A stretch of DNA of 64,000 bases, from NCBI RefSeq assembly GCF_024502345.1, contig NZ_JALDNN010000001.1, one strand, 5' to 3'. Position numbers and translations under genes: made by a program. The stretch is from Escherichia coli. Lineage in GTDB: Bacteria; Pseudomonadota; Gammaproteobacteria; Enterobacterales; Enterobacteriaceae. Below the pieces are notes generated by a model. That model ran no database searches. It saw nothing but the letters and a program-made list of their open reading frames with translations, and had not been told where the DNA came from. How positions within the stretch are numbered: position 1 is the stretch's first letter; each line of letters opens with the position of its first letter. Below are positions 9,006 to 37,739 of this stretch, one piece after another.

Positions 9006-9701
9006 ATGCGACTTGATAAATTTATCGCACAGCAACTCGGTGTTAGCCGTGCTATTGCCGGGCGTGAAATCCGCGGCAATCGTGTCACCGTTGATGGCGA
9101 AATCGTCCGCAATGCAGCGTTCAAACTGCTCCCTGAACACGATGTTGCTTATGATGGCAATCCGCTGGTGCAGCAACACGGCCCACGTTATTTCATGCTC
9201 AACAAGCCCCAGGGCTATGTTTGCTCAACTGATGACCCGGATCACCCAACGGTGCTCTATTTTCTGGATGAACCTGTGGCGTGGAAACTGCACGCGGCGG
9301 GGCGGTTGGATATTGATACCACCGGTCTGGTGCTGATGACTGACGACGGTCAGTGGTCGCATCGCATTACTTCTCCGCGTCATCATTGCGAGAAGACCTA
9401 TCTGGTGACGCTGGAATCACCCGTAGCTGACGATACGGCAGAGCAATTTGCCAAAGGCGTACAGCTGCATAACGAAAAAGATCTCACTAAGCCAGCGGTG
9501 CTGGAAGTGATTACCCCTACGCAGGTCCGTCTGACCATCAGCGAAGGGCGTTATCATCAGGTGAAACGCATGTTCGCCGCTGTGGGTAACCATGTGGTTG
9601 AGCTGCATCGTGAACGTATTGGCGGTATTACGCTGGATGCTGATTTAGCCCCCGGTGAATATCGTCCGTTAACTGAAGAAGAAATTGCCAGCGTCGTCTA
9701 A
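9006..9701 (+). CDS. rsuA: 16S rRNA pseudouridine(516) synthase RsuA
   Basis: 231-aa product from [15 protein letters not shown]... (S4 domain plus pseudouridine synthase core); the ORF from 8910 is an upstream in-frame extension. Confidence 0.9.
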
Positions 9702-9728
9702 CTTTTCCATGACTTTCAGGAGCCCGTT

Positions 9729-10919
9729 GTGACCACCCGACAGCATTCGTCGTTTGCTATTGTTTTTATCCTTGGCCTGCTGGCCATGTTGATGCCGCTG
9801 TCGATTGATATGTATCTGCCCGCGCTACCGGTAATTTCAGCGCAGTTTGGCGTACCTGCGGGCAGTACGCAGATGACCCTCAGTACTTATATTCTGGGCT
9901 TTGCGTTGGGGCAGTTAATCTACGGGCCGATGGCAGACAGCTTTGGGCGTAAGCCGGTGGTTCTTGGCGGTACGCTGGTGTTTGCCGCCGCCGCGGTGGC
10001 GTGTGCGTTGGCACAAACCATCGATCAGCTGATTGTGATGCGTTTCTTCCACGGGCTGGCGGCGGCTGCGGCCAGCGTGGTTATCAACGCTTTGATGCGT
10101 GATATCTACCCGAAAGAAGAGTTCTCGCGGATGATGTCGTTTGTCATGCTGGTGACGACCATTGCACCGCTGATGGCACCGATAGTTGGCGGCTGGGTGC
10201 TGGTGTGGCTGAGCTGGCATTACATCTTCTGGATCCTCGCCGTGGCGGCGATTCTGGCTTCGGCAATGATCTTCTTTCTGATCAAAGAAACCTTACCACC
10301 GGAGCGTCGCCAGCCTTTTCACATTCGTACCACTATTGGTAACTTTGCGGCGCTGTTCCGTCATAAGCGTGTCCTGAGTTATATGCTTGCCAGTGGTTTC
10401 AGCTTTGCCGGGATGTTCTCGTTCTTAAGCGCCGGACCGTTTGTCTACATTGAAATTAACCACGTCGCGCCGGAAAACTTTGGTTATTACTTTGCACTAA
10501 ACATTGTTTTCCTGTTCGTGATGACCATTTTTAACAGCCGCTTCGTCCGCCGTATTGGCGCGTTAAATATGTTCCGCTCGGGGTTGTGGATACAGTTTAT
10601 TATGGCGGCGTGGATGGTCATCAGTGCGCTGCTGGGGCTGGGATTCTGGTCGCTGGTGGTTGGCGTTGCGGCGTTTGTGGGCTGCGTGTCGATGGTGTCA
10701 TCCAATGCGATGGCGGTCATTCTTGATGAGTTTCCCCATATGGCGGGAACGGCATCTTCGCTGGCAGGAACCTTCCGTTTTGGCATAGGGGCAATTGTTG
10801 GCGCATTGCTTTCTCTTGCGACCTTTAACTCTGCATGGCCGATGATTTGGTCAATTGCATTCTGCGCAAGCAGCTCCATTCTCTTCTGTCTGTACGCCAG
10901 TCGACCGAAAAAACGGTGA
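9729..10919 (+). CDS. bcr: MFS efflux transporter Bcr (bicyclomycin/sulfonamide resistance)
   Basis: 396-aa multi-TM product recognised as Bcr; GTG start. Confidence 0.9.
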
Positions 10920-11251
10920 TCTATTGCACAACGAGGAAGCTAAAAGGCTTTCTTTGTTGATGCATGTCAACCACAAATCTATCATTCCCCCGATATATGT
11001 TTATTTTATGTAAAATCAATTTATGTAAAAAGTCACATCATTGTAGTTAAAAAGGTTGAGTTAGATCGCAGAAACGGGTACATATAGCCCCGCAAACGTG
11101 ACCACGCCCGCAGATATTACTTAAATCAGAGCCATAGAGGCCACGCAGGCGAGGCATCAATCTTTACGATCTGTATAAAGACGGATTGTTGATGATGTGT
11201 TAAAATTGATGTAAACAAATTGTGAAGTGAATGTGCTTCCGGGGAAAATAA

Positions 11252-11596
11252 GTGACTTCATTACAACTCTCAATCGTCCATCGACTGCCGCAGAACTATC
11301 GCTGGTCTGCTGGTTTCGCAGGTTCGAAGGTTGAACCGATTCCGCAAAATGGACCGTGCGGTGACAACAGCCTGGTGGCGCTTAAATTGCTTAGCCCGGA
11401 TGGTGATAATGCATGGTCGGTGATGTATAAACTAAGCCAGGCGTTAAGCGACATCGAAGTTCCATGTTCGGTGCTGGAGTGTGAAGGTGAGCCGTGCCTG
11501 TTTGTAAATCGCCAGGACGAGTTTGCTGCAACATGCCGATTGAAAAATTTTGGTGTGGCAATTGCCGAACCCTTTTCAAACTACAATCCTTTTTAA
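11252..11596 (+). CDS. yejG: uncharacterised protein YejG
   Basis: 114-aa ORF recognised as YejG. Confidence 0.85.
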
Positions 11597-11599
11597 GCG

Positions 11600-13189
11600 T
11601 CAGCTCAACGCCAGTAGCTGACGCGTATACTCCTGCTGCGGTGTGGCAAACACGCGCGCGCACGGTCCTTGTTCCACTACTTCCCCTTGTCGCAGTACGA
11701 TAACCTGATGACATAACGCGCGGACAACGTGCAAATCGTGGCTGATAAACAAATAGGCCAGTTGATGCTTTTGTTGCAATGATTTCAATAGCGTCAATAT
11801 TTGCGCCTGTACCGTTTTGTCGAGTGATGATGTCGGTTCATCAAGTATGATCAGCGAGGGCTTAAGAATTAATGCCCTGGCAATCGCAATACGTTGTCGC
11901 TGACCACCAGAGAACTCCGCCGGATAACGGTGGCGTGTTTCAGGATCTAATCCCACTTCATGCATCACGGCTATCACTTGTTGTTCGCGTTGTGCGGCAG
12001 AAAGCGTCGGCTGGTGAACCCGTAAGCCTTCCTCAATAATCTGCAAAACGTTGAGTCGTGGGTTGAGCGAGGAGTTTGGATCCTGAAATACCACCTGAAT
12101 GCGATGACGAATAGGTAACAGCTGGCGGCGATTTAAATTTTGCAGTGGCTGACCGTCAAAGATGATGCTGCCCTGAGAATTAATCAGTCGCAGCAGCGCC
12201 AGTCCCGTCGTACTTTTCCCGGAACCGGACTCGCCCACTAAACCCAGTGTTTCACCCGCTCGTAGCGTAAAACTGATGTTTTTCACCACCACATTATGAT
12301 CCACAATGCGCTTCAAAATCCCTTTGCGAATGGGGAAGGCAACCTGAAGCTGTTCAACATCCAGCAACGTTGAGGCAGGTTCTGGCAACGGCACTGGATC
12401 GCCTGACGATTCACTGTTGAGTAGCTTTTGTGTGTAAGGATGAGTGGGTGAGGCAAATAGCGTAGCGGCGTAATTTTGCTCGACACAGCGACCGTTTTGC
12501 ATTACCGCCACGCGGTGGGCCAGTTTTCTGACAATGCTGAGGTTATGAGTAATAAACAGCATGCCCATATTCAGCTCGCCTTGCAGTTCGCGCAACAGCT
12601 GTAAAATCTGCGCCTGGACAGAGACGTCCAGTGCGGTGGTCGGTTCATCGGCAATTAATAATTCCGGTCGCGTTAACAGCGCCATCGCAATCATCACCCG
12701 CTGGCGTTCGCCGCCGGAGAGCTGATGCGGATAATCTGTCAGCCGTTTTGCCGCCTGGCGGATACCAACGCGATCAAGGCAGTTAAGAATTTCGCCACGA
12801 GCCGCTTCCCGACGCATCCCGCGGTGGAGTGAAAGCACTTCATAAAGCTGTTTTTCCAGGGTATGCAATGGATTTAACGACACCATCGGCTCCTGAAAAA
12901 TCATGGCGATCTTATTACCACGTACGCCGCGCAACGTTTGATCGCTGGCATGAAGCAGCGATTCGCCATGAAAACGAATATCGCCGGAGAGATATTCAAC
13001 CGGCGGGGAAGGGAGCAGGCGTAAAATTGACAGCGCGGTAACGCTTTTGCCTGAACCAGACTCACCCACCAGCGCCAGCGTTTCGCCAGCCTCAATCTGT
13101 AGTGAAACATCATTTACTACTGTACGTACGGTTTGCTGATGGCGAAAACCCACCGACAAATCTTCAATCGCTAACAGAGTTTGCGTCAT
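11600..13189 (-). CDS. yejF: ABC transporter ATPase YejF (duplicated ATP-binding domains; peptide/microcin C uptake)
   Basis: Two Walker A motifs (GESGSGKS twice) and two LSGG signature motifs; start taken at MTQTLLAIE (529 aa). Confidence 0.9.
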
Positions 13190-13190
13190 G

Positions 13191-14216
13191 CTACACCGCC
13201 TTATTAGGATCAAATGCGTCGCGGACGGCTTCACCAATAAAGATCAGCAAAGACAATAATATCGCCACCGACAAGAAGGCGGTGATCCCAAGCCACGGGG
13301 CCTGAAGGTTATTTTTCCCTTGTAACAGCAGTTCACCGAGTGACGGTGAACCGAGCGGCAGACCGAAGCCGAGGAAATCGAGTGAGGTCAGGGTGGTGAT
13401 CGAACTACATAAAATAAACGGTAAAAAGGTGAGGGTCGCGACCATGGCATTAGGCAACATATGACGCAGGATGATACTGCGATCGCTGACGCCAAGCGCC
13501 TGCGCCGCACGAATGTAGTCGAAATTACGGGTACGTAAAAACTCCGCCCGCACCACGCCGACCAGACTCATCCAGCCAAACAAGACAGTAATTGCCAGCA
13601 GCCACCAGAAGTTAGGCTGTACGACGCTGGAAAGTAAAATAATCAAAAACAGCGTCGGCATCCCCGACCATACTTCAATAAAGCGTTGTCCCCAGAGATC
13701 GACTTTACCGCCGTAATAGCCTTGTAGCGCCCCCGCCAGCACGCCCATCACGCTGGAACAGAGAGTCAGCATCAGGCCAAACAGAACCGAGATCCGCGTG
13801 CCATAGAGAATACGTGCCAGCACATCGCCGCCGTTGGCATCCGTTCCCAGCCAGTTTTGCCGGGAGGGTGGAGAAGGGAAGGGCTTATCGGTAGCAAAGT
13901 TGATACTGGTAGCACCAAAGCGAATCGGTGCCCACAGTACCCAGCCGTTATTTTCCAGCCGTTGTTTCAGCCACGGGTCCTGATAATCAGCCTGACTTGC
14001 CAGAGGGCCGCCAAAATCGCTTTCACTGTAATTTTTCAACAACGGAAAATACCAACTGCCGTCATAACGCACCAGCAACGGTTTATCGTTGGCGATAAGT
14101 TCAGAACACAAACTCAAACCAAACAAAACGAGGAAAATCCATAACGACCAGTAGCCGCGACGGTTATGGCGAAAACGCGCCCAACGGGCCTGATTGACGG
14201 GGCTGAGTCGCGACAT
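13191..14216 (-). CDS. yejE: ABC transporter permease YejE
   Basis: 341-aa multi-TM ORF recognised as YejE; stop/start adjacent to yejF and yejB. Confidence 0.9.
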   Translation of the reverse strand: MSRLSPVNQARWARFRHNRRGYWSLWIFLVLFGLSLCSELIANDKPLLVRYDGSWYFPLLKNYSESDFGGPLASQADYQDPWLKQRLENNGWVLWAPIRFGATSINFATDKPFPSPPSRQNWLGTDANGGDVLARILYGTRISVLFGLMLTLCSSVMGVLAGALQGYYGGKVDLWGQRFIEVWSGMPTLFLIILLSSVVQPNFWWLLAITVLFGWMSLVGVVRAEFLRTRNFDYIRAAQALGVSDRSIILRHMLPNAMVATLTFLPFILCSSITTLTSLDFLGFGLPLGSPSLGELLLQGKNNLQAPWLGITAFLSVAILLSLLIFIGEAVRDAFDPNKAV

Positions 14217-15310
14217 TAACGTCCCTCAAAATCTATACGCGGATCGACCAGCGTATAGCTGATATCACTGACAATATTCAGCAGCAGGCCAATCAGGGTG
14301 AAAATATACAAGGTACCAAACATTACAGGATAATCGCGCGAGACGGTCGCTTCGTAGCCCAGTAAGCCAAGACCATTGAGTGAAAACATCACCTCAATCA
14401 GCAGCGAGCCGGTAAAAAACATGCTGATAAACGTCGCCGGAAAACCGGCAATCACCAGCAGCATGGCGTTGCGGAACACATGTTTCCAGAGAATATTTTT
14501 TTCACTTACCCCTTTCGCACGCGCGGTCACCACGTATTGCTTGCGTACTTCATCAAGGAATGAGTTTTTTGTCAGCATAGTCAGCGCCGCAAAGCCACCA
14601 ATCACCGTCGCCAGCACCGGCAGCGTGATATGCCACAGATAATCGGTGATTTTCTGATACCACGGCAGCGAATCAAAGTTAGCGGAAACCAGGCCGCGTA
14701 GAGGGAACAGGTCGAAATAGCTGCCGCCTGCGAAGAAGACAATCAGCAGGATGGCAAACAAAAAGGCCGGAATGGCGTAGCCGATGATGATAAATGCGCT
14801 ACTCCAGACGTCAAAGCGGCTCCCATTATAAACAGCTTTGCGAATGCCTAACGGAATCGACACCAGATAGATAATCAGCGTGCTCCATAATCCGAGGGTG
14901 ATGGAAACCGGCAGACTGTCTTTAATCAGCGTCAGCACCGAGGCGCTGCGAAACAGGCTATCGCCAAAATCAAAGCGGATGTAGTCCCAGAGCATTTTGA
15001 AGTAACGTTCGTGGATCGGCTTATCGAAACCGTAGCGATGAGTGATCTCGGCGATCACTTCTGGATCTAATCCGCGTCCGCCACGGTAATTACTGTCGCT
15101 GATATTGCCGACACCCGTTTGCGCATGGCTGGCACGAACACCTTCACCGCCTGCGCCGGGTAATACTCCGGCATTACCAAACTCAATGGCGGCGATGGCC
15201 TGGTCGATCGGACCGCCAGGCGCAATTTGCACGATGAAAAAGTTGATAGTGATAATCGCCCATAACGTTGGGATCACCAGCAACAGACGGCGAATCAGAT
15301 AAGCGCCCAT
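14216..15310 (-). CDS. yejB: ABC transporter permease YejB
   Basis: 364-aa multi-TM ORF recognised as YejB. Confidence 0.9.
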
Positions 15311-17125
15311 CTACTCTCCCTGTTGCCTGGCTGACGGCAGTTTGGCCGCTTTATTAACGTCATACCACCAGGTATCGATACCCAGGCTGTAAACAGGGCG
15401 TACAGCGGGTTGGGAGAATTTATCCCACCAGGCGAGACGGTCTTCCGCCATGTACCACATTGGCAGCATGTAATAATTCCACGTTAATACGCGATCCAGT
15501 GCTCGCCCTAACGGCAGTAATTTTTCTTTATTTCCCTGCGCGGCAATAATTTGGTTGATCAGCGAGTCGATAACCGGGCTTTGCACGCCGGGGGCATTAT
15601 AAGTGGAATTGATATATTCCGATGACCAGGAAATCTGTAAATCGGAACTGGGCCACGGCATCGCCCGCCATACGCGCGGCATCATGTCATAGTCGCGACT
15701 GCGCATGCGGTTGGTGATTTGCGAGTTATCCACCTTGCGAATGTCCATGTTGATACCCAGCCGTTGCAGGCTGTGCTGGAACGGCAATACCCACTGACTA
15801 TTGCTGCTTGCAGGAAGCAATAATTCAAAGCTGAGTGGCTGACCCGTTGTGGCATTAACGCGTTGCTGACCCTTCAGCACCCAGCCCGCTTCGTTGAGAA
15901 GTTTGTCGGCTTTTAACAGGTTGTCACGATCGTAGCCATCGCCTTTAGATACCGGCGGCTGGTAGATTTGTGTGAAGACTTCTGACGGTAGATCTTTTTT
16001 CATTGGTGCCAGAAGCACCAGCTCCGCGGCGTCGGGGTAATTTCTGGCCGCGTATTCGGTATTCTGAAAATAACTGTTCGTGCGACTCCAGGCATTGTAA
16101 AACAACGCCTTGTTCATCCATTCAAAGTCAAAGGCGAGGGTGATTGCTTCGCGGACCCGGCGATCGCTGAATACCGGACGTTGGATATTAAACGCCAGCC
16201 AGCGCGTATCCTGGGCTGATTCGTTCTTTTGCTCATCTTTGATGATGTATTTTTTATCGAAATTTTTACCGGTATAACGCGTGGCCCAGTTTTTAGCGTC
16301 GTTTTCCATACGCAAATCAAAGGCACCTGCTTTAAACGCTTCAAAGGCGACATTATCATCGAGGTAATAATCGTAGCGAATGGTGTCGAAATTCCAGCGT
16401 CCACGGTTTACCGGTAAGTTTGCTGCCCAGTAATCTTTCACGCGGGAATAGACAATATTTTGCCCCATTTTCCAGGACGTAATTCGGTACGGACCACTGG
16501 CAAGCGGAGGCGTGGCGAGTGGATCGCTAAGTTTGTGATCCTTCCAGTACTTTTCTGGAAATACCGGCAGCGAAAACAGACTCAACATATCTTCTTTGCC
16601 GGGTTTAGCTAACTCAATGCGCACGGTTAACGGCGCAATGGCTTTGACGGTGGTGCCTTTGTAGACCAGACGAAATTGCGGCACGCCTTCGGTCATAAAT
16701 TTTTGAAAAGTAAACTCTACATCGCGGGCAGTAATGGGCGAACCATCATGAAAACGGGCGCGCGGATTAATAGCTACCTCCACCCAGGAATAATCGTCAG
16801 CATAGCGTGCACTTTCAGCAATCAGCGGGTAATAACTGCCTGGTTCGTCATCGGAAGTCGTAAATAGCGTGTCGTACAGCTGCTCGGTGCGTGCGCCCGG
16901 GTTGCCGCGCAGTGCATAGCGGTTGAAATTATCGAAGGTGCCGAGGGCTGACAACGTTATCTGCCCACCTTTTGGCGCGGCGGGGTTCACATAATCAAAA
17001 TGGTTGAAATTAAACGCGTACCGGGGTTCGCCCAGCACGGCAAAGGCATAGCTTTCCTTGATAGCCTGCGCCTGCGCACCAAAGGTGAACAGAGCGATAA
17101 ACAGCAGCAGTATGCGCACAATCAT
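15311..17125 (-). CDS. yejA: periplasmic oligopeptide-binding protein YejA
   Basis: Signal peptide followed by a family-5 solute-binding domain; start taken at the second Met (MIVRILLL); the longest ORF runs to 17131. Confidence 0.85.
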   Translation of the reverse strand: MIVRILLLFIALFTFGAQAQAIKESYAFAVLGEPRYAFNFNHFDYVNPAAPKGGQITLSALGTFDNFNRYALRGNPGARTEQLYDTLFTTSDDEPGSYYPLIAESARYADDYSWVEVAINPRARFHDGSPITARDVEFTFQKFMTEGVPQFRLVYKGTTVKAIAPLTVRIELAKPGKEDMLSLFSLPVFPEKYWKDHKLSDPLATPPLASGPYRITSWKMGQNIVYSRVKDYWAANLPVNRGRWNFDTIRYDYYLDDNVAFEAFKAGAFDLRMENDAKNWATRYTGKNFDKKYIIKDEQKNESAQDTRWLAFNIQRPVFSDRRVREAITLAFDFEWMNKALFYNAWSRTNSYFQNTEYAARNYPDAAELVLLAPMKKDLPSEVFTQIYQPPVSKGDGYDRDNLLKADKLLNEAGWVLKGQQRVNATTGQPLSFELLLPASSNSQWVLPFQHSLQRLGINMDIRKVDNSQITNRMRSRDYDMMPRVWRAMPWPSSDLQISWSSEYINSTYNAPGVQSPVIDSLINQIIAAQGNKEKLLPLGRALDRVLTWNYYMLPMWYMAEDRLAWWDKFSQPAVRPVYSLGIDTWWYDVNKAAKLPSARQQGE

Positions 17126-28078: not shown

Positions 28079-29770
28079 ATGAAAACGCTGCTGATTATTG
28101 ACGCTAATCTCGGTCAGGCACGCGCCTATATGGCGAAGACCCTGCTGGGCGCGGCGGCGCGAAAAGCAAAACTGGAAATCATCGACAATCCGAACGACGC
28201 AGAAATGGCGATTGTTCTCGGTGATTCCATCCCGAACGACAGCGCGCTGAACGGTAAAAATATCTGGCTGGGCGATATTTCCCGGGCAGTTGCGCACCCT
28301 GAGCTGTTCCTGAGTGAAGCCAAAGGCCATGCGAAACCTTACACTGCGCCGGTCGCTGCGACAGCACCGGTTGCCGCCAGCGGTCCGAAACGCGTAGTTG
28401 CGGTGACTGCTTGCCCGACTGGCGTAGCACACACCTTTATGGCGGCTGAAGCCATTGAAACCGAAGCGAAAAAACGTGGCTGGTGGGTGAAAGTTGAAAC
28501 CCGTGGTTCTGTTGGTGCGGGTAATGCAATCACTCCCGAAGAAGTAGCCGCAGCGGATCTGGTGATTGTGGCGGCAGATATCGAAGTGGATCTGGCGAAA
28601 TTTGCTGGTAAACCGATGTATCGTACCTCTACCGGTCTGGCGCTGAAGAAAACCGCGCAGGAACTGGATAAAGCGGTTGCTGAAGCAACGCCGTATGAAC
28701 CGGCGGGCAAAGCTCAAACGGCGACCTCTGAAGGTAAGAAAGAGAGTGCAGGCGCATACCGTCACTTGCTGACGGGCGTCTCTTACATGCTGCCGATGGT
28801 CGTTGCAGGTGGTCTGTGTATCGCGCTTTCTTTTGCTTTTGGTATCGAAGCGTTTAAAGAGCCGGGTACGTTGGCAGCGGCGCTGATGCAGATTGGTGGT
28901 GGTTCAGCCTTTGCGCTGATGGTGCCGGTACTGGCAGGTTACATTGCCTTCTCCATTGCCGATCGTCCGGGCCTCACGCCGGGTCTGATTGGCGGTATGC
29001 TGGCGGTCAGCACCGGTTCTGGCTTTATTGGCGGTATTATTGCGGGCTTCCTGGCTGGTTACATTGCGAAGTTAATTAGTACGCAACTGAAACTGCCACA
29101 GAGTATGGAGGCGCTGAAACCAATCCTGATCATTCCGCTAATTTCCAGTCTGGTGGTCGGTCTGGCGATGATCTACCTGATCGGTAAACCAGTTGCTGGC
29201 ATTCTCGAAGGGTTGACTCACTGGCTGCAGACCATGGGGACTGCGAATGCGGTTCTGCTGGGGGCGATCCTCGGTGGCATGATGTGTACTGACATGGGCG
29301 GTCCGGTAAATAAAGCAGCGTACGCATTCGGTGTGGGTCTGCTGAGTACTCAAACCTATGGCCCGATGGCGGCGATTATGGCGGCAGGTATGGTGCCACC
29401 GCTGGCAATGGGCCTGGCAACAATGGTGGCGCGTCGCAAATTCGACAAAGCGCAGCAGGAAGGTGGCAAAGCCGCTCTGGTACTGGGACTGTGCTTTATT
29501 TCGGAAGGTGCAATTCCGTTTGCTGCTCGTGATCCGATGCGTGTGCTGCCGTGCTGTATCGTGGGTGGGGCGCTGACTGGCGCAATCTCAATGGCGATTG
29601 GTGCGAAACTGATGGCACCGCACGGTGGTCTGTTTGTTCTGCTGATCCCTGGCGCTATTACGCCGGTACTGGGTTACCTGGTAGCAATTATTGCCGGTAC
29701 GCTGGTGGCGGGTTTGGCCTATGCCTTCCTGAAACGTCCGGAAGTGGACGCAGTAGCGAAAGCCGCGTAA
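28079..29770 (+). CDS. fruA: fructose PTS EIIB'BC component FruA
   Basis: 563-aa product recognised as FruA. Confidence 0.95.
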   Translation: MKTLLIIDANLGQARAYMAKTLLGAAARKAKLEIIDNPNDAEMAIVLGDSIPNDSALNGKNIWLGDISRAVAHPELFLSEAKGHAKPYTAPVAATAPVAASGPKRVVAVTACPTGVAHTFMAAEAIETEAKKRGWWVKVETRGSVGAGNAITPEEVAAADLVIVAADIEVDLAKFAGKPMYRTSTGLALKKTAQELDKAVAEATPYEPAGKAQTATSEGKKESAGAYRHLLTGVSYMLPMVVAGGLCIALSFAFGIEAFKEPGTLAAALMQIGGGSAFALMVPVLAGYIAFSIADRPGLTPGLIGGMLAVSTGSGFIGGIIAGFLAGYIAKLISTQLKLPQSMEALKPILIIPLISSLVVGLAMIYLIGKPVAGILEGLTHWLQTMGTANAVLLGAILGGMMCTDMGGPVNKAAYAFGVGLLSTQTYGPMAAIMAAGMVPPLAMGLATMVARRKFDKAQQEGGKAALVLGLCFISEGAIPFAARDPMRVLPCCIVGGALTGAISMAIGAKLMAPHGGLFVLLIPGAITPVLGYLVAIIAGTLVAGLAYAFLKRPEVDAVAKAA

Positions 29771-29925
29771 TAAAAGGTGTGTTACAGGGCAGAAATTTAC
29801 TGCCCTGTATCATTGGATGAGCGCAAAGAGAATGACCGGTTTGTGAATGTAATTTTATGAATTTAAATGGTTTTATCTTTCAGTAGAAACCTGAAACGTT
29901 CATCAAATACTAAGGTTATTTCCTC

Positions 29926-29954
29926 AAGGGCAGATTCTTTTCTGCCCTTTTTTA
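29926..29954 (+). terminator. rho-independent terminator of fruBKA
   Basis: AAGGGCAGA-TTCTT-TCTGCCCTT hairpin followed by TTTTT. Confidence 0.8.
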
Positions 29955-30193
29955 GTGTTCATGTTCTGTGCATCCCGTCACAAATTCCTCGCTTTTGTAA
30001 TTCAGGCATTTAATCGCATTTTGTGAGCCTGCTCAAATCTGCCCATTTTGCCTCTCTGGCGGTAATTTACTTTACGTAAAACATGCATACTATGAGCACA
30101 TGTTTAAATATGAACACATGTTTAAACCGTCTTTGCAGTATCTATATTCTTGTGGATTGACAGGGTTGGTAATTTTTTACCAGAGGACGTGCT

Positions 30194-31135
30194 ATGCGCG
30201 AAAAGGATTATGTCGTAATTATAGGTTCGGCGAATATTGATGTCGCCGGATATTCACATGAATCATTAAATTATGCGGATTCAAATCCAGGTAAAATAAA
30301 ATTTACGCCTGGTGGGGTAGGGCGAAATATTGCACAAAACCTGGCGTTGCTGGGTAACAAAGCCTGGCTACTGAGCGCAGTAGGCAGTGATTTTTATGGT
30401 CAATCGCTGCTAACGCAAACCAATCAATCTGGCGTTTATGTCGATAAATGCCTGATTGTGCCGGGAGAAAATACGTCGAGCTATTTATCATTACTCAATA
30501 ATACCGGTGAAATGCTGGTTGCTATAAATGACATGAATATTAGCAACGCTATTACAGCTGAATATCTCGCACAGCACCGTGAATTTATTCAGAGGGCAAA
30601 GGTCATTGTCGCGGACTGTAATATCAGTGAAGAGGCACTGGCATGGATTCTGGATAATGCTGCCAACGTACCCGTATTTGTCGATCCGGTTTCAGCGTGG
30701 AAATGTGTCAAAGTGCGCGACCGTCTAAATCAGATCCACACTCTCAAGCCAAACCGCCTTGAAGCGGAAACCCTGAGTGGGATTGCGCTGTCAGGGCGTG
30801 AAGATGTGGCAAAAGTTGCTGCCTGGTTCCATCAACATGGCCTGAACCGACTGGTATTGAGCATGGGCGGCGATGGCGTTTATTACAGTGATATCAGCGG
30901 TGAAAGTGGCTGGTCTGCCCCGATCAAAACCAATGTTATTAATGTTACCGGAGCGGGCGATGCCATGATGGCGGGACTTGCTTCGTGTTGGGTAGACGGA
31001 ATGCCGTTTGCCGAATCTGTTCGTTTCGCACAGGGATGTTCGTCAATGGCGCTCTCCTGTGAATACACCAATAACCCCGATTTATCGATTGCCAACGTTA
31101 TATCGTTAGTGGAGAACGCAGAATGTCTGAATTAA
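30194..31135 (+). CDS. psuK: pseudouridine kinase PsuK (YeiC), PfkB family
   Basis: 313-aa product recognised as YeiC/PsuK. Confidence 0.9.
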   Translation: MREKDYVVIIGSANIDVAGYSHESLNYADSNPGKIKFTPGGVGRNIAQNLALLGNKAWLLSAVGSDFYGQSLLTQTNQSGVYVDKCLIVPGENTSSYLSLLNNTGEMLVAINDMNISNAITAEYLAQHREFIQRAKVIVADCNISEEALAWILDNAANVPVFVDPVSAWKCVKVRDRLNQIHTLKPNRLEAETLSGIALSGREDVAKVAAWFHQHGLNRLVLSMGGDGVYYSDISGESGWSAPIKTNVINVTGAGDAMMAGLASCWVDGMPFAESVRFAQGCSSMALSCEYTNNPDLSIANVISLVENAECLN

Positions 31136-32061
31136 AAATTTCCCCTGAATTATTACAAATTTCCCCGGAAGTGCAGGACGCTTTAAAAAACAAAAAACCG
31201 GTTGTGGCGCTGGAATCGACCATTATTTCTCACGGGATGCCGTTCCCACAAAATGCCCAGACCGCAATTGAAGTAGAAGAAACTATTCGTAAACAGGGCG
31301 CAGTACCTGCCACTATCGCAATTATTGGCGGCGTGATGAAAGTGGGTTTAAGCAAAGAAGAAATTGAATTACTGGGTCGTGAAGGGCATAACGTGACCAA
31401 AGTTAGTCGTCGCGATTTACCTTTTGTTGTTGCCGCCGGAAAAAATGGCGCAACCACTGTGGCTTCAACGATGATTATTGCGGCGCTTGCCGGAATTAAA
31501 GTATTTGCCACCGGGGGAATTGGTGGTGTGCATCGCGGGGCGGAACATACCTTCGATATTTCTGCCGATTTGCAAGAACTGGCAAATACTAATGTCACCG
31601 TTGTTTGTGCCGGGGCGAAATCTATTCTCGATTTAGGATTAACCACTGAGTATTTAGAAACCTTCGGTGTGCCGTTAATTGGCTATCAGACTAAAGCGCT
31701 GCCTGCGTTTTTCTGCCGTACCAGCTCGTTTGACGTCAGCATTCGTCTCGACAGCGCCAGTGAAATTGCCCGTGCAATGGCGGTGAAATGGCAAAGCGGG
31801 CTGAACGGTGGCCTCGTGGTAGCGAACCCGATCCCGGAACAGTTTGCGATGCCGGAGGAATCTATCAATGCAGCCATAGATCAAGCCGTCGCCGAAGCCG
31901 AAGAGCAGGGCGTTATTGGTAAAGAAAGTACACCGTTCCTGCTGGCGCGCGTTGCTGAGCTGACCGGCGGTGACAGCCTGAAATCCAATATCCAGCTGGT
32001 GTTCAACAACGCCATTCTGGCGAGTGAAATTGCCAAAGAATACCAGCATCTCGCGGGTTAA
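31123..32061 (+). CDS. psuG: pseudouridine-5'-phosphate glycosidase PsuG (YeiN)
   Basis: 312-aa product recognised as YeiN/PsuG; overlaps the psuK 3' end. Confidence 0.9.
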   Translation: MSELKISPELLQISPEVQDALKNKKPVVALESTIISHGMPFPQNAQTAIEVEETIRKQGAVPATIAIIGGVMKVGLSKEEIELLGREGHNVTKVSRRDLPFVVAAGKNGATTVASTMIIAALAGIKVFATGGIGGVHRGAEHTFDISADLQELANTNVTVVCAGAKSILDLGLTTEYLETFGVPLIGYQTKALPAFFCRTSSFDVSIRLDSASEIARAMAVKWQSGLNGGLVVANPIPEQFAMPEESINAAIDQAVAEAEEQGVIGKESTPFLLARVAELTGGDSLKSNIQLVFNNAILASEIAKEYQHLAG

Positions 32062-32088
32062 TTTCTGACGGGCAGAAAGCCGTCGCCC
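32062..32088 (+). promoter_or_regulatory. conserved leader motif upstream of psuT (alternative hairpins)
   Basis: TTTCTGACGGGCAGAAAGCCGTCGCCC; near-identical copy upstream of nupX; can fold as TTTCTG/CAGAAA, GACGG/CCGTC or GGGC/GCCC stems. Confidence 0.4.
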
Positions 32089-32154
32089 GTACTCATCAAG
32101 CATACCAAAACCTGGCGCTGACGCCGGGTTTACTGGCATGAAGGGAAAATCATT

Positions 32155-33405
32155 ATGGATATAATGAGAAGTGTTGTGGGGATGGTGGTGTTACTGGCAA
32201 TAGCATTTCTGTTGTCAGTGAATAAAAAGAGCATCAGTTTGCGCACGGTTGGAGCCGCACTGCTGCTGCAAATCGCTATTGGTGGCATCATGCTCTACTT
32301 CCCACCGGGAAAGTGGGCAGTAGAACAGGCGGCATTAGGCGTTCATAAAGTGATGTCTTACAGTGATGCCGGTAGCGCCTTCATTTTTGGTTCGCTGGTT
32401 GGGCCGAAAATGGATGTCCTGTTTGACGGTGCGGGTTTTATCTTCGCCTTTCGCGTACTTCCGGCGATTATTTTCGTTACTGCGCTCATCAGTCTGCTGT
32501 ACTACATTGGCGTGATGGGGCTGCTGATTCGCATCCTTGGCAGCATTTTCCAGAAAGCTCTTAACATCAGCAAAATCGAATCTTTTGTCGCAGTCACAAC
32601 TATTTTCCTCGGGCAAAATGAGATCCCGGCGATCGTTAAACCGTTTATCGATCGCATGAATCGCAACGAGTTGTTTACCGCAATTTGTAGCGGGATGGCG
32701 TCCATTGCTGGTTCGATGATGATTGGTTATGCTGGAATGGGCGTACCAATTGACTACCTGTTAGCGGCATCGCTGATGGCGATCCCAGGTGGTATTTTGT
32801 TTGCACGTATTCTTAGCCCGGCCACCGAGCCTTCGCAGGTCACATTTGAAAATCTGTCGTTCAGCGAAACGCCGCCAAAAAGCTTTATCGAAGCGGCGGC
32901 GAGCGGTGCGATGACCGGGCTGAAAATCGCCGCTGGTGTAGCGACGGTGGTAATGGCGTTTGTCGCAATTATTGCGCTGATCAACGGCATTATCGGCGGA
33001 ATTGGTGGCTGGTTTGGTTTCGCCAATGCCTCTCTGGAAAGTATTTTTGGCTATGTGCTGGCACCGCTGGCGTGGATCATGGGTGTGGACTGGAGTGATG
33101 CCAATCTTGCGGGTAGCCTGATTGGGCAGAAACTGGCGATTAACGAATTCGTCGCTTACCTGAGTTTCTCCCCATACCTGCAAACGGGCGGCACGCTGGA
33201 AGTGAAAACCATTGCGATTATCTCCTTTGCGCTTTGTGGTTTTGCTAACTTTGGTTCTATCGGTGTTGTCGTTGGCGCATTTTCGGCTATTTCGCCAAAA
33301 CGTGCTCCAGAAATCGCCCAGCTTGGTTTACGGGCGCTGGCAGCAGCAACGCTTTCCAACCTGATGAGTGCGACTATTGCCGGGTTCTTTATTGGTCTGG
33401 CGTAA
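32155..33405 (+). CDS. psuT: CNT-family nucleoside transporter PsuT (YeiM)
   Basis: 416-aa multi-TM product recognised as YeiM/PsuT; paralog of NupX. Confidence 0.9.
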   Translation: MDIMRSVVGMVVLLAIAFLLSVNKKSISLRTVGAALLLQIAIGGIMLYFPPGKWAVEQAALGVHKVMSYSDAGSAFIFGSLVGPKMDVLFDGAGFIFAFRVLPAIIFVTALISLLYYIGVMGLLIRILGSIFQKALNISKIESFVAVTTIFLGQNEIPAIVKPFIDRMNRNELFTAICSGMASIAGSMMIGYAGMGVPIDYLLAASLMAIPGGILFARILSPATEPSQVTFENLSFSETPPKSFIEAAASGAMTGLKIAAGVATVVMAFVAIIALINGIIGGIGGWFGFANASLESIFGYVLAPLAWIMGVDWSDANLAGSLIGQKLAINEFVAYLSFSPYLQTGGTLEVKTIAIISFALCGFANFGSIGVVVGAFSAISPKRAPEIAQLGLRALAAATLSNLMSATIAGFFIGLA

Positions 33406-33415
33406 TGCTCGATTT

Positions 33416-33457
33416 GTAGACCGGATAAAACGTATTAAGCGTTGCATCCGGCAATCG
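33416..33457. repeat. REP-like palindromic element downstream of psuT
   Basis: GTAGACCGGATAAAACGTATTAAGCGTTGCATCCGGCAATCG (CCGGAT...ATCCGG arms). Confidence 0.5.
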
Positions 33458-33475
33458 CGCTATTGCAAATAATTT

Positions 33476-34135
33476 TTACTGCATCATCCCGGAGAATTTA
33501 TTCTCCGGGTCCATCTCCAGCGCCAGTCCTGACAACTGCTTTCTGTTTTTAATGAGATACCCTTTCTTGCTTTTAGTTAATAAACCGTCGTGAATGAATT
33601 GCGCGAGAACATATAAAAGATGTCGATAAGAAACGCCTAAATACTCTGCCGCTTGCGTATGCTTTTCGTGATAAAGATCACCTTCCTGCGAGAGTAATAT
33701 AAAAGCTGCCAGGCGATTAACTAACGGAAATGATTGATTCTGAGTTAAAGAAACAATATTACGATAATTTTTATGACTTAAGGTGACGCAGAGTTTTCGT
33801 AAAAATAGCGTGTCGTTTAATAACAGCGGGCGGTAATGTTTCATAGAGAGCGCAAGGCACCAACACTCTTCAATAGCCTGCACCGCACGCGGTTCATGGT
33901 CTTTGTCGATTAACTCAATCTCACCAATAAAACAGGGGGCGGCAAAGAAATCGATCAGCGACACGCGACCATTAGCAAGCGTGGCGTAAAGCCTGGCGCG
34001 GCCTCGCGTCAGATAAAACAGCCAGGACGGCTGTTGCCCTTCCTGCACAATGTAGTCACGCGCTAAAAAATGAAACAGCCGCGTATCGGCTGAAACATCC
34101 GTTAAAAAGCAATCCTTAAACGCGGATTCACTCAT
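33476..34135 (-). CDS. yeiL: Crp/Fnr-family transcriptional regulator YeiL
   Basis: Cyclic-nucleotide-binding-like domain plus C-terminal HTH; start taken at MSESAFKD (219 aa), the ORF extends to 34174. Confidence 0.8.
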
Positions 34136-34303
34136 CAATTGCAGCTTAAGATCATTATTGTGGATTTCTTTCACGATGTTTATCCGCTGTGAGATTTCTC
34201 ATATTTAGCATACGTACGCTGTTGTTAAGATTCAATCATCGGCCCGGTCGAATTTTCTTTGCTGTAGAAAAAATAACGCAACTGGAAACAGAGGAAATAA
34301 ACA

Positions 34304-35245
34304 ATGGAAAAGAGAAAAATTATTCTGGATTGTGATCCGGGTCATGATGATGCTATTGCAATGATGATGGCAGCGAAACATCCGGCGATTGATTTATTAG
34401 GCATCACTATTGTAGCGGGTAATCAGACGCTTGATAAAACATTAATTAATGGCCTGAATGTTTGCCAGAAACTGGAGATTAATGTTCCGGTTTATGCGGG
34501 GATGCCGCAACCCATTATGCGTCAACAAATCGTTGCCGATAATATTCACGGTGAAACCGGACTGGATGGCCCGGTATTCGAGCCGCTGACCCGCCAGGCA
34601 GAAAGTACCCACGCGGTGAAATACATCATTGATACCCTGATGGCAAGCGATGGCGATATCACTCTGGTGCCGGTTGGTCCGCTTTCAAATATCGCGGTGG
34701 CAATGCGTATGCAACCCGCGATCCTGCCCAAAATCCGTGAAATTGTGCTAATGGGCGGCGCTTACGGTACAGGCAACTTCACGCCATCTGCCGAGTTCAA
34801 CATCTTTGCTGACCCGGAAGCCGCACGCGTGGTGTTCACCTCCGGCGTTCCATTAGTGATGATGGGCCTCGATCTTACCAACCAGACCGTTTGCACCCCG
34901 GACGTAATTGCTCGGATGGAAAGGGCAGGCGGCCCTGCCGGAGAGCTGTTCAGCGACATCATGAACTTCACTCTCAAAACGCAGTTCGAAAACTACGGCC
35001 TGGCTGGCGGCCCGGTGCACGACGCCACCTGCATCGGTTATCTGATTAACCCTGATGGCATTAAAACCCAGGAGATGTACGTCGAAGTGGACGTCAACAG
35101 TGGCCCTTGCTATGGGCGTACCGTCTGCGACGAGCTGGGCGTTCTTGGCAAGCCCGCTAATACCAAAGTCGGCATCACTATTGATACCGACTGGTTCTGG
35201 GGCTTAGTCGAAGAGTGCGTGCGCGGCTACATCAAAACCCATTAA
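34304..35245 (+). CDS. rihB: pyrimidine-specific ribonucleoside hydrolase RihB
   Basis: 313-aa product with N-terminal DCDPGHDD inosine-uridine hydrolase motif. Confidence 0.9.
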
Positions 35246-35292
35246 GTGTTGATAACAAGCCGGGTCAGTATCGCAAGATCCAAGCCCGGCTA

Positions 35293-35319
35293 TTTCTGAT
35301 GGGCAGAAAGCCGTCGCCC
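35293..35319 (+). promoter_or_regulatory. conserved leader motif upstream of nupX (paralogous to the psuT leader)
   Basis: TTTCTGATGGGCAGAAAGCCGTCGCCC, 26/27 identical to the psuT leader; the single difference keeps pairing as a G-U wobble. Confidence 0.4.
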
Positions 35320-35344
35320 AATATGACATGAAGAGATAATAACT

Positions 35345-36595
35345 ATGGATGTCATGAGAAGTGTTCTGGGAATGGTGGTATTGCTGACGATTGCGTTTTT
35401 ACTGTCAGTAAACAAGAAGAAGATCAGCCTGCGTACCGTTGGCGCGGCGTTAGTGTTACAGGTCGTGATTGGCGGGATTATGCTTTGGTTACCGCCAGGG
35501 TGTTGGGTCGCTGAAAAAGTCGCTTTTGGCGTGCATAAAGTGATGGCGTACAGCGACGCGGGTAGCGCATTTATCTTCGGTTCGCTGGTCGGGCCGAAAA
35601 TGGACACGCTGTTTGATGGCGCAGGATTTATCTTTGGTTTCAGAGTGTTACCGGCAATTATCTTCGTCACCGCGCTGGTGAGTATTCTCTATTACATCGG
35701 TGTGATGGGGATCTTAATTCGCATTCTCGGCGGTATATTCCAGAAAGCATTAAATATCAGCAAGATCGAGTCATTCGTCGCGGTCACTACCATTTTCCTC
35801 GGGCAAAACGAAATTCCGGCAATCGTCAAACCCTTTATCGATCGTCTGAATCGCAATGAATTATTTACAGCGATTTGTAGTGGCATGGCCTCGATTGCTG
35901 GTTCGACAATGATTGGTTACGCCGCACTGGGCGTACCTGTGGAATATTTGCTGGCGGCATCGTTAATGGCGATCCCAGGCGGAATCTTGTTTGCCCGCCT
36001 GTTAAGCCCGGCTACGGAATCTTCGCAGGTTTCTTTTAATAACCTCTCTTTCACCGAAACACCGCCAAAAAGCATTATTGAAGCCGCCGCGACAGGGGCA
36101 ATGACCGGGCTGAAAATCGCCGCAGGTGTGGCGACAGTAGTGATGGCATTTGTCGCCATCATTGCGTTAATTAACGGTATTATCGGCGGCGTTGGCGGCT
36201 GGTTTGGTTTTGAACATGCCTCGCTGGAGTCCATTTTAGGTTATCTGCTGGCCCCACTGGCGTGGGTAATGGGTGTTGACTGGAGTGATGCGAATCTTGC
36301 CGGGAGTTTGATTGGACAGAAACTGGCAATAAATGAATTTGTCGCTTATCTCAATTTCTCACCCTATCTGCAAACGGCTGGCACTCTGGATGCTAAAACC
36401 GTGGCGATTATTTCCTTCGCGTTGTGCGGTTTCGCTAACTTTGGTTCTATCGGGGTGGTGGTGGGGGCGTTTTCTGCGGTTGCACCACACCGTGCGCCGG
36501 AAATCGCCCAGCTTGGTTTACGCGCGCTGGCGGCGGCGACACTTTCTAACCTGATGAGTGCCACCATTGCCGGGTTCTTTATTGGTTTAGCGTAG
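35345..36595 (+). CDS. nupX: CNT-family nucleoside permease NupX
   Basis: 416-aa multi-TM product recognised as NupX. Confidence 0.9.
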   Translation: MDVMRSVLGMVVLLTIAFLLSVNKKKISLRTVGAALVLQVVIGGIMLWLPPGCWVAEKVAFGVHKVMAYSDAGSAFIFGSLVGPKMDTLFDGAGFIFGFRVLPAIIFVTALVSILYYIGVMGILIRILGGIFQKALNISKIESFVAVTTIFLGQNEIPAIVKPFIDRLNRNELFTAICSGMASIAGSTMIGYAALGVPVEYLLAASLMAIPGGILFARLLSPATESSQVSFNNLSFTETPPKSIIEAAATGAMTGLKIAAGVATVVMAFVAIIALINGIIGGVGGWFGFEHASLESILGYLLAPLAWVMGVDWSDANLAGSLIGQKLAINEFVAYLNFSPYLQTAGTLDAKTVAIISFALCGFANFGSIGVVVGAFSAVAPHRAPEIAQLGLRALAAATLSNLMSATIAGFFIGLA

Positions 36596-36607
36596 TGTGC
36601 GATTTAT

Positions 36608-36646
36608 GAGCCGGATAAGATGCGGTCAAGCGTCGAATCCGGCAAC
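36608..36646. repeat. REP-like palindromic element downstream of nupX
   Basis: GAGCCGGATAAGATGCGGTCAAGCGTCGAATCCGGCAAC. Confidence 0.5.
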
Positions 36647-36650
36647 ATTG

Positions 36651-37739
36651 TTACACCATTGGCACTAATGAAAGCGCGTTATCGGCAGACAGGGTAGGGT
36701 TGTTTAAGCTGCCGCTGGCGCGTGAAATTGCCGCGCAGGCTACCGCAAAACGGGCGCTGTCGCGGAAACTGTATCCTTCAAGAAAGCTATATACCAGGCC
36801 CGCCATAAAACCATCGTCAGCACCAAAACTGTCTACTGTCGTATGCGCTGGCGCGGTCAGCAAAAATTGTTCTCCATCCTTTTCGCTGCAATAAACTGAC
36901 TCATCGGGCAAATAAACAAACAGTTGCTGAACACCTTGCTGATGCAACGCATTCACTGCAGCATTACGGTCAGCATCGCTGGTGATCGCCTGTCCCCATA
37001 AAATTTCCAGCTCCGGTAAAGTGGGTTTCAGGGTGTGAATATGCGCCAGCCAGTGTTTGATTTTGCCCGCTTTGAATTCTGAAACGGTATCGACAAACAC
37101 CGGGATCTCATCAGCGAGGGTAAAGACCCATTCCAGCGCCTCGGCTGTCAGGTTGCAATCAGCCAGTACCACGCCCGCATGACGAAGTAAATCGCGCGAC
37201 CCGTTCAGTAGTTGCGGTGTCAACTGTTCCAGCAGATGGGTATCGTTAATCGCCAGCACGGTTTGATCGTCTCGATTGGCAATTGCCAGATACGTCGATG
37301 TGCTTTGACCATGCAAACGAACGCAGCCGGAGACATTCACGCCGGCGCGGCGCGTTTCTTCCAGGAGCATTTCGCCATAAAAGTCATCGCCAATCACTGA
37401 AAGCAAATGGACGTCACGGCCTAACAGCGCCAGATTGTGGGCGATATTGCGTCCAACGCCGCCTGCCGAGCAATGAATTGTACCGGGATGAGAAGCCGCT
37501 TGCGGGTAATGGATATCCGCCATCCCGCGAATATCCATATTGATTGTCCCCACCACTACGCAGTATTCCTGCTCGGTGAGAATGTAACCTTTGCCTTTAA
37601 TCCGGCCTTTGCGCATTAAATCCATAATATGCGCCGCAACGCGCGAACGACTGATTTGCAGCATGTTCGCAATTTCGTTCTGCTGAATCAGCGGGTTACG
37701 CCGTAAAATTGCAAGGATCTCCTTTTCCCGGTTATTCAT
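36651..37739 (-). CDS. yeiI: PfkB-family kinase with N-terminal HTH domain, YeiI
   Basis: 362-aa product; N-terminal winged HTH plus ribokinase-like domain paralogous to PsuK. Confidence 0.85.
   Translation of the reverse strand: MNNREKEILAILRRNPLIQQNEIANMLQISRSRVAAHIMDLMRKGRIKGKGYILTEQEYCVVVGTINMDIRGMADIHYPQAASHPGTIHCSAGGVGRNIAHNLALLGRDVHLLSVIGDDFYGEMLLEETRRAGVNVSGCVRLHGQSTSTYLAIANRDDQTVLAINDTHLLEQLTPQLLNGSRDLLRHAGVVLADCNLTAEALEWVFTLADEIPVFVDTVSEFKAGKIKHWLAHIHTLKPTLPELEILWGQAITSDADRNAAVNALHQQGVQQLFVYLPDESVYCSEKDGEQFLLTAPAHTTVDSFGADDGFMAGLVYSFLEGYSFRDSARFAVACAAISRASGSLNNPTLSADNALSLVPMV

Follow-up and report, generated by a model that had tools for sequence, protein, structure and literature searches.

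A putative double operator at the psuKGT promoter of Escherichia coli and YeiI as its candidate repressor

In a 64,000-nucleotide stretch of Escherichia coli DNA (contig NZ_JALDNN010000001.1 of assembly GCF_024502345.1, hereafter the window), the spacer between fruA and the pseudouridine catabolism operon psuKGT contains an 18-nucleotide sequence that is duplicated head to tail. Our analysis suggests that this repeat is probably a double operator at the psuKGT promoter, with the protein YeiI as candidate repressor and pseudouridine, or its 5′-phosphate, as the presumed inducer. The repeat, its conservation across species, its position relative to the mapped transcription start site (TSS) and its co-occurrence with proteins that join a helix-turn-helix (HTH) domain to a PfkB domain are matters of observation. 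The first-pass annotation of this DNA, which had proposed an operator or activator-site array, was right in spirit and is partly supported; the geometry has to be corrected to an operator lying on the start site, and a regulator is now proposed where none had been assigned.

Pseudouridine is the most abundant RNA modification, and the enzymes for its breakdown were identified decades after the work on pyrimidine auxotrophs. That work, cited in PMC9061257, had established that pseudouridine use in E. coli is cryptic and is activated by mutation. Our analysis turns a small repeat into a concrete regulatory model with coordinates for promoter, TSS and operator, and names a candidate repressor among the remaining y-genes of E. 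coli. It may also be of use for strains engineered for pseudouridine, as required for mRNA manufacture, in which the expression of psuK and psuG is manipulated.

The tandem repeat and its conservation

The motif CACATGTTTAAA occurs exactly at 30097–30108 and 30115–30126, 18 bp apart, just as the first-pass annotation had reported, and has no further copy in the 64-kb window even when one mismatch is allowed; the 13-mer that this annotation carried in its title is exact in the second copy, while the first begins with G. Both copies belong to a head-to-tail duplication of 18 nt, TATGAGCACATGTTTAAA (30091–30108) followed by TATGAACACATGTTTAAA (30109–30126), which is 17/18 identical (Tandem Repeats Finder (TRF) score 65) and is located inside the 423-bp fruA–psuK spacer; the distance to the psuK ATG (30194) amounts to 68–113 nt, in agreement with what was originally given. 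The operon that it would control, psuKGT (30194–33405, + strand), comprises psuK (30194–31135), psuG (31123–32061) and psuT (32155–33405). From 29961 through the psuK start the window is identical to E. coli K-12, and coordinates from the K-12 literature can therefore be transferred without indels. A 12-mer found twice somewhere in 64 kb is unremarkable on its own (11 of 100 shuffles). The psuK repeat is the sole tandem duplication in the window with a period of 12–30 and at most one mismatch; 100 windows simulated with a first-order Markov model contained on average 0.14 such repeats, and none with a period of 18 or more.

Each 18-bp unit is an imperfect palindrome, with the consensus TTTGAACA-yr-TGTTCAAA, the symmetric form TTTGAACACGTGTTCAAA and the core rAACA-NN-TGTTy. 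Putative operator unit 1 (30091–30108, no strand assigned) reads TAT-GAGCA-CA-TGTTT-AAA, has its palindrome core at 30094–30105 and its centre at about +1, and obtains a matrix score of 23.0; putative operator unit 2 (30109–30126, likewise without strand) reads TAT-GAACA-CA-TGTTT-AAA, with the core at 30112–30123, the centre at about +19 and a score of 25.0. Across species, the invariant positions are GA.CA (30094–98)-yr-TGTTt (30101–05)-N6-GAACA (30112–16)-yr-TG.T (30119–22), that is, two 12-bp palindromes whose centres are 18 bp apart, and the bases between them, TTTAAA included, are variable. Invariant half-sites, a free central dinucleotide and fixed spacing form, as judged from the alignment, the pattern of a protein-binding DNA site. 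Of the palindromes that had been pointed out in each unit, ACATGT and TTTAAA, both are present, but the conserved positions match ACATGT only, TTTAAA falling into the variable spacer between half-sites. The third ACATG that had been counted as part of the array at 30082–30086 is found one base earlier, at 30081–30085, within the −35/−10 spacer; it is out of register and contains no half-site that is conserved outside the Escherichia/Citrobacter group.

The region upstream of psuK was aligned for the window, CFT073 (carrying a diverged E. coli B2 allele), other Escherichia, E. albertii, Citrobacter, Buttiauxella and a Raoultella metagenome-assembled genome (MAG). Five islands rise above the background conservation of about 1 bit per column in the fruA–psuK spacer, namely a CRP-like site, the −35 hexamer, the −10 hexamer, the two repeat units and a hairpin next to the Shine-Dalgarno sequence. 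Unit 1 reaches 1.65 and unit 2 1.55 bits per column, compared with about 0.96 in the adjacent leader and spacer. Two units with an 18-bp period directly follow the −10 hexamer in all 16 promoters compared at the outset, and the same layout was found in Klebsiella, Brenneria, Serratia, Yersinia, Salmonella diarizonae and Pasteurella; the betaproteobacterium Paludibacterium has a double site with a 19-bp period. Absence of the repeat from orthologous psuK promoters had been named as the observation that would speak against a regulatory role, and this check was carried out: wherever a protein of the winged HTH (wHTH)-PfkB type is associated with the promoter, in 13 cases, the element was found. 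Outside the K-12-type allele only 10–13 of the 18 positions are identical between unit 1 and unit 2, and K-12-type unit 2 departs from the form present in B2 strains, E. albertii and Citrobacter (TGCTCTAA) by changes that all copy unit 1. Since the layout is conserved across genera while the units are diverged elsewhere, the element is old, and the 17/18 identity in K-12-type E. coli reflects a homogenisation of its two units that happened recently, through slippage or gene conversion.

A site matrix was built from 23 unique units. Loci that were not part of it gave pair scores of 32.4 (Salmonella diarizonae), 20.6 (Pasteurella testudinis) and 11.9 (Paludibacterium, at its 19-bp period), to be compared with a random null with a median of −7.9, a 95th percentile of 1.8 and a maximum of 17.7 in 500. 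In the 64-kb window the matrix found no other site above random expectation (best other match 12.9 at 25829), and the promoters of rihB, nupX, yeiL and nfo–yeiI therefore appear to be devoid of such a site. Other copies of the motif, GAACACATGTT at 14474 inside yejB and GAACAACTGTT at 40061 inside yeiE, were dismissed as chance occurrences. In Yersinia, a perfect extra palindrome, AAACACTTGTTT (3253–3264 of locus L018), is present about 250 bp upstream of HTH-psuK in a block shared with Serratia (about 3245–3262 of locus L017; ACAACCAAACA...GGTTCT) and may serve in looping as an auxiliary operator.

The psuK promoter, its start site and a recurrent adaptive mutation

The −35 hexamer TTTACT (30066–30071, + strand; 1.77 bits per column), in which TTTAC is invariant in 13 sequences, is followed after a 16-bp spacer by the −10 hexamer TACTAT (30088–30093, + strand; 1.80 bits per column), in which TA.TAT is conserved and whose last three bases are the first three of unit 1; the −10 hexamer of the CFT073-type allele is TATTAT. 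This promoter, TTTACT-16-TACTAT, is intrinsically weak and predicts a start near 30100. Versions U00096.2 and.3 of the K-12 sequence differ by an offset that we take to be 1978, which agrees with the reference bases checked on MG1655, and the psuK ATG is at 2259296 in NC_000913.3. With this offset, the start published from differential RNA sequencing (dRNA-seq) as 'RVS_(II)-2257413' on the reverse strand of U00096.2 (class II, i.e., tobacco acid pyrophosphatase (TAP)-enriched with a weak signal; PMC4681348) is placed at 30099 (+ strand) in the window, where it coincides with the C of GCACATG, follows the −10 hexamer by 6 nt and heads a 95-nt leader. Conserved −35 and −10 hexamers, the published TSS and the selected mutation described below define the same promoter, and the two units therefore span −8 to +28 relative to the TSS. 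A regulatory protein-binding array for the psu operon is supported by the conservation; it does not lie upstream of the promoter, and since it overlaps the 3′ end of the −10 hexamer, the TSS and the first ~28 transcribed bases, it fits a repressor operator and not an array of activator sites. The mapped transcript begins with C-AUG, and the AUG at 30100 opens a 46-codon open reading frame (MFKYEHMFKPSLQ...), which passes over the psuK start codon in a different frame.

In several reports on E. coli evolving in mouse guts or under long-term stationary phase, the fruA/psuK spacer is a recurrent target of selection, always by A>C at 2257444 on the K-12 + strand (PMC7518454, PMC9509342, PMC6731689, PMC10340439, PMC7858067). 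This coordinate in U00096.2 corresponds to 2259422 in NC_000913.3, as checked on MG1655, and to T>G at 30068 in the window, the third T of TTTACT, which becomes TTGACT. The selected single-nucleotide polymorphism (SNP) is a textbook −35 up-mutation of the psuK promoter, and a highly reproducible adaptive change of gut and stationary-phase evolution thereby receives a mechanistic reading. Altered growth is reported for the SNP, and its authors cite supplementary data on psuK expression. Among 4,214 complete genomes, about five have the TTGACT allele; four are laboratory derivatives of K-12 (ER1821R, ER2683, S17-1 and ST18) and one is a pigeon isolate. Apparently, the same −35 up-mutation also arose during laboratory propagation.

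A CRP-like site, TGTGA-GCCTGC-TCAAA (30022–30037, + strand; centre 30029.5), matches TGTGA-N6-TCACA at nine of ten positions and is conserved at 1.64 bits per column against about 1.0 in its flanks, its TGTGA being invariant in enterobacterial loci. From its centre to the −35 hexamer the distance is 36.5 bp in Escherichia, Citrobacter, Buttiauxella, Klebsiella and Brenneria and 35.5 bp in Salmonella. With the TSS at 30099 the site is centred at −69.5, or at −70.5 or −71.5 if the real start lies 1–2 nt downstream; the expectation for class I activation is −61.5, −71.5 or further integral turns. In one proteome study, PsuK and PsuG decrease along with many catabolic proteins that depend on CRP. 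The conserved 36.5-bp distance and this co-variation lend indirect support to the prediction that CRP bound about 70 bp upstream probably helps the psuK promoter. The site is not in the short list of the strongest in-vitro CRP sites in the Footprint-seq CRP table (PMC12871828), and a Cappable-seq supplement has no entry near this locus. A further CRP-like sequence, TGTGAGATTTCTCATA, is present at 34190–34205 in the yeiL–rihB intergenic region and has the same TGTGA-N6-TCATA form as is seen upstream of psuK in other genera.

YeiI as candidate regulator and competing explanations

The regulator had been described as not obvious from the sequence. The window itself suggests one, as yeiI (36651–37739, − strand) encodes a 362-amino-acid paralogue of PsuK in which a winged HTH (residues 1–48, HTH_24) is fused to a pseudouridine-kinase-like PfkB domain (residues 58–348). 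The DNA-binding domain is recognized above the curated threshold (39.9 bits, cut-off 21.9), as it is in the corresponding Yersinia fusion protein (44.7 bits). A homology search with PsuK revealed that the orthologues in Yersinia, Serratia, Photorhabdus, Xenorhabdus, Pasteurellaceae and others are proteins of about 360–372 amino acids with an N-terminal winged HTH. Such an HTH-PsuK fusion takes the place of a separate YeiI in Serratia, Yersinia, Pasteurella and Paludibacterium, while Enterobacteriaceae and Brenneria contain two paralogues, PsuK as the enzyme without HTH and YeiI with the HTH and an altered catalytic motif. The yeiI gene is convergent to and directly follows psuT in Klebsiella, Brenneria, Citrobacter, Buttiauxella, Raoultella and E. 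albertii, even where psuKGT has left fruA. In the window, fruB-fruK-fruA (stop at 29770), psuK, psuG and psuT on the + strand are followed by yeiL (−), rihB, nupX, yeiI (−) and nfo (−), and in E. coli the insertion of yeiL-rihB-nupX separates psuT and yeiI by 3.2 kb. When regulator and site were considered together, 13 loci had both and three had neither (16 loci, about seven independent lineages); those devoid of HTH, yeiI and double site are Aeromonas, a Pasteurellaceae MAG and 'Bartonella sp. HY038', with pair scores of −9.0, −3.4 and −8.7.

The HTH is the most conserved part of these proteins, with 64–69% identity between YeiI and the fusions compared with 44–48% in the kinase domain, and the helix-wing segment SRSxVAxHIMxLMxKGxIKGKGYIL is almost invariant. 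PfkB proteins use the GAGD motif as anion hole and catalytic base. This motif is changed to GADD in all four YeiI orthologues, and PsuK and all fusions keep GAGD. The residues S30, N143 and K170 confer pseudouridine specificity on the kinase EcPUKI (PMC9061257); in our alignment they are kept in YeiI as invariant S83, N196 and K223 and are also invariant in the fusions. YeiI may accordingly be a protein that binds the nucleoside and is catalytically altered. Its function was called unknown in 2022 (PMC9061257), NCBIfam and the source annotations label it 'sugar kinase', and the solved structures among its relatives cover the kinase domain only. A comparison of its HTH with solved DNA-binding domains gave only marginal matches (best E = 0.03), to domains of the GerE, LrpA and HlyU type. 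A remnant of HTH-coding sequence was sought in the psuK leaders of E. coli, Citrobacter and Klebsiella, with only marginal short matches. Literature searches for psuK/yeiC with promoter, regulator, SELEX, ChIP-exo or CRP yielded nothing relevant, and no regulator is named there or in curated databases.

Binding of the repeat by YeiI, repression and the identity of the inducer are predicted from sequence. Two YeiI dimers, or a tetramer, would occupy both units over the start site and would block RNA polymerase at a weak core promoter that CRP, about 70 bp upstream of the start, would assist. Pseudouridine or its 5′-phosphate would bind to the kinase-like domain and release YeiI. In Yersinia, Serratia, Pasteurella and Paludibacterium the HTH resides on the active kinase, and PsuK would hence regulate its own synthesis. 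Beyond this, there is in our estimation an even chance that YeiI is the regulator of pseudouridine catabolism ('PsuR') with the repeat as its double operator, and the founding characterised member of a family of transcription factors with winged HTH and PfkB sensor; this family would stem from a bifunctional self-regulating HTH-kinase, kept in Yersiniaceae, Pasteurellaceae and Neisseriales, which was split by duplication in Enterobacteriaceae into the enzyme PsuK and the sensor-repressor YeiI (GAGD to GADD). This suggests a clean case of a bifunctional enzyme-regulator separating into two specialised paralogues.

Several observations weigh against a YeiI-bound operator. The mouse-gut and long-term stationary-phase experiments report, in the accessible portions of the papers, the single −35 SNP as the only psu-linked adaptive change ('Adaptive Loss: no'); they describe loss-of-function hits in the repressor genes frlR, dgoR, srlR and glpR and none in yeiI. 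Knock-outs of yeiI would be expected if its loss fully derepressed the operon. The missing mutants could mean that the limiting factor in the gut is the promoter rather than repression, or else that the model is incomplete. With a centre spacing of 18 bp, about 1.7 helical turns, two dimers would sit on different sides of the helix, an unusual arrangement for proteins that bind cooperatively. The yeiI gene of E. coli is set apart from psuT, seems to be co-transcribed with nfo and has no matching site before it. The operator is intact in Salmonella diarizonae, although only residues 9–188 of YeiI can be detected there. The co-occurrence sample is small, and most of its positive loci also entered the matrix. 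Finally, the pairing of YeiI with the operator is itself a prediction from sequence, and curated resources see in YeiI merely a 'sugar kinase'.

It is unlikely, though far from negligible as a prospect, that the double operator is bound by another transcription factor, be it YeiL of the CRP/FNR family, a nucleoside or pyrimidine regulator of the DeoR/GlpR, LacI or TetR type or a global factor, and that YeiI is merely a kinase. Spanning the junction of the units, TGTTy-N6-rAACA shares its 5-N6-5 geometry with sites of the CRP family and resembles DeoR and GlpR operators, yeiL adjoins psuT in E. coli and close Escherichia species, and the lack of yeiI mutants among those described in the accessible parts of the evolution reports would be accounted for. 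On the other hand, the HTH on PsuK is the only regulator consistently present in fusion-type loci, and no SELEX or chromatin immunoprecipitation (ChIP) report naming psuK/yeiC came up in literature searches. For YeiL, only autoregulation is on record, and the yeiL–rihB intergenic region (34175–34303), where it is reported to occur, has no site of this kind; moreover, YeiL is not found beside psuT in Citrobacter, Buttiauxella, Raoultella, Klebsiella, Brenneria and E. albertii, all of which have the operator. YeiL was rejected as the regulator on these two grounds, a linkage limited to E. coli-like Escherichia and the missing site at its own promoter. Very improbable is an action of the repeat as RNA, either as a 5′-terminal hairpin that stabilises the psuK mRNA or as a pairing site for a small RNA such as RprA. 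In the K-12-type allele nucleotides +4 to +29 do form an 11-bp hairpin, folding of the leader is better than that of shuffled sequences (z = −2.5), and psuK is among the RprA targets common to RIL-seq and TRIC-seq (bioRxiv 10.1101/2025.09.11.675593). Covariation in the repeat helix is nevertheless at chance level (95.8% of cells paired versus 95.6% in shuffles, 283 out of 500 of which equal or exceed the observed value), and the hairpin was rejected for this reason; variable positions yield broken or wobble pairs (broken in three of 12 sequences), the register of the hairpin differs between alleles, and the conserved positions are the DNA palindrome half-sites within each unit, the only 'conserved helix' being the invariant TGTT/AACA. 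Nothing in 29500–30500 comes near any Rfam gathering score, the duplex with full-length RprA is no better than with shuffled leaders (27% as good) and localises no pairing site, and the double site co-occurs with an HTH protein.

Less credible still is that the repeat is part of the promoter itself, or an activator array for a downstream promoter, TTTAAA-16-TATATT (30121–30148); the second TTTAAA would then be the −35 hexamer of this promoter, and the units would be direct-repeat sites for an AraC-like activator. A consensus scan does find this promoter, with nine of 12 matches, and 18-bp direct repeats abutting the −35 hexamer are typical of AraC-family activators. Neither hexamer is conserved, even in the CFT073 allele or Citrobacter, and the mapped TSS at 30099 lies upstream; the scan promoter was discarded on these two counts. 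In addition, it is the upstream −35 hexamer that is improved by the adaptive SNP, and only 3 nt separate the units from the start codon in fusion-type loci, which leaves no space for a promoter further downstream. Scarcely tenable, finally, is a neutral slippage duplication, i.e., a small variable-number tandem repeat (VNTR) in an AT-rich spacer, as might be read from the 17/18 identity of the units and from natural alleles with other copy numbers. Among about 4,220 genomes with the K-12-type allele, about 4,190 (~99%) have exactly two units, about 27 have three and three related strains have one; slippage at the repeat is ongoing but rare. The locus does not behave as a contingency VNTR either, since changes in copy number are rare, lie downstream of the TSS and leave the −35/−10 spacing unaffected. 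Conservation of the diverged two-unit layout reaches from Escherichia to Pasteurellaceae and to a betaproteobacterium but does not extend to the flanking leader, and these sequence conservation data already contradict neutrality.

Related systems, strain variation and neighbouring features

A double operator for YeiI would find its closest counterparts in the ROK repressors NagC and Mlc of E. coli, in which an HTH is likewise joined to a domain that descends from a kinase for the pathway sugar and now serves as ligand sensor, and whose operators overlap promoters co-regulated by CRP. YeiI differs from them in that its sensor fold is PfkB/ribokinase-like and not ROK/actin-like, that its HTH is a winged helix of the HTH_24 type and that active kinase-HTH fusions persist in other lineages of its family. 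BirA is both biotin ligase and bio repressor, and NadR is a bifunctional enzyme-repressor; the HTH-PsuK proteins of Yersinia, Serratia, Pasteurella and Paludibacterium resemble them as an HTH with an apparently intact catalytic domain (GAGD) encoded behind its own operator. Unlike BirA and NadR, the E. coli proteins belong to the PfkB family, divide the two functions between PsuK and YeiI and would have a modified nucleoside as ligand, and the system is known here from sequence. In the lac promoter CRP binds at −61.5 and O1 lies at +11. With such class I promoters psuK has in common a weak core, a CRP-like site whose distance of about 70 bp upstream is fixed, palindromic operators over the start and up-promoter mutations that bypass the limitation; it differs by two adjacent operators with an 18-bp period in place of a primary and a distant auxiliary one, and its CRP dependence is predicted.

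DeoR and GlpR operators have the forms TGTTAGAA.TTCTAACA and ATGTTCGWTAWCGAACAT. The psuK unit junction, TGTTT-AAATAT-GAACA, conforms to TGTTN-N6-NAACA and occurs in a nucleoside-catabolic context, but only TGTT/AACA is shared, and psuK promoters show no conservation of the six central bases; no gene of the DeoR family is present in any psu locus examined. The PhoP box is a direct repeat of TGTTTA with a 5-nt spacer. Its 11-bp hexamer period is not found at psuK, where the TGTTTA copies follow each other at 18 bp; in most species the second copy reads TGCTCT. Altogether, none of the operators of DeoR, GlpR, RutR, the ARG box, LexA, PhoP, PuuR, KdgR and the LacI family, in the forms known to us, fits the conserved positions and the spacing convincingly.

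In about 22% of complete E. coli genomes (B2, such as CFT073 and ST131), the stretch from the 3′ end of fruA through psuK (88% amino acid identity) to yeiI (85%) belongs to a strongly diverged haplotype. This haplotype (9145–16030 of locus L003 in CFT073, corresponding to 29744–37739 of the window) resembles E. albertii and combines a better core promoter (TTTACA-16-TATTAT) with a unit 2 that is not homogenised and REP-like insertions after fruA. In strain A30, an IS1 has taken the place of the psuK promoter, psuK itself and the 5′ part of psuG (4118–5219 of locus L002), and strain PSS-10 has IS1A inside the fruA–psuK spacer. In Salmonella enterica subsp. diarizonae, a YeiI homologue is detectable after psuT only as residues 9–188 (6306–6818 of locus L024), no gene is called there and the double operator is intact; yeiI may be a recent pseudogene in this organism. 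Gene callers take the equivalent ATGTTTAAA as the start of HTH-psuK in Serratia and Yersinia (MFKNKQVSNM...). Because the methionine ten codons downstream aligns with the N-terminus of YeiI, the annotated start is probably an over-extension into the operator.

Directly 5′ of the Shine-Dalgarno sequence GAGG (30183–30186) lies a conserved hairpin or palindrome, TGGTAA-TTTT-TTACCA (30167–30182, + strand), with 98.6% of cells paired. One of its pairs shows a compensatory change, C-G in eight sequences and U-A in three, with TGGCAA/TTGCCA in Citrobacter, Buttiauxella and CFT073. It may be an RNA helix that affects translation, or a second protein/DNA site. Two other tandem repeats in the window equal that of psuK in TRF score, one at 31131–31170 (21-nt unit, 1.9 copies) in the psuK/psuG overlap and one at 53486–53536 (26-nt unit, 1.9 copies). 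On the 3′ side of fruA there are two GGGCAGA...TCTGCCC hairpins (29786–29810 and 29926–29957); only the second is followed by a T-run and conserved in the CFT073 allele, and it is probably the real fruBKA terminator.

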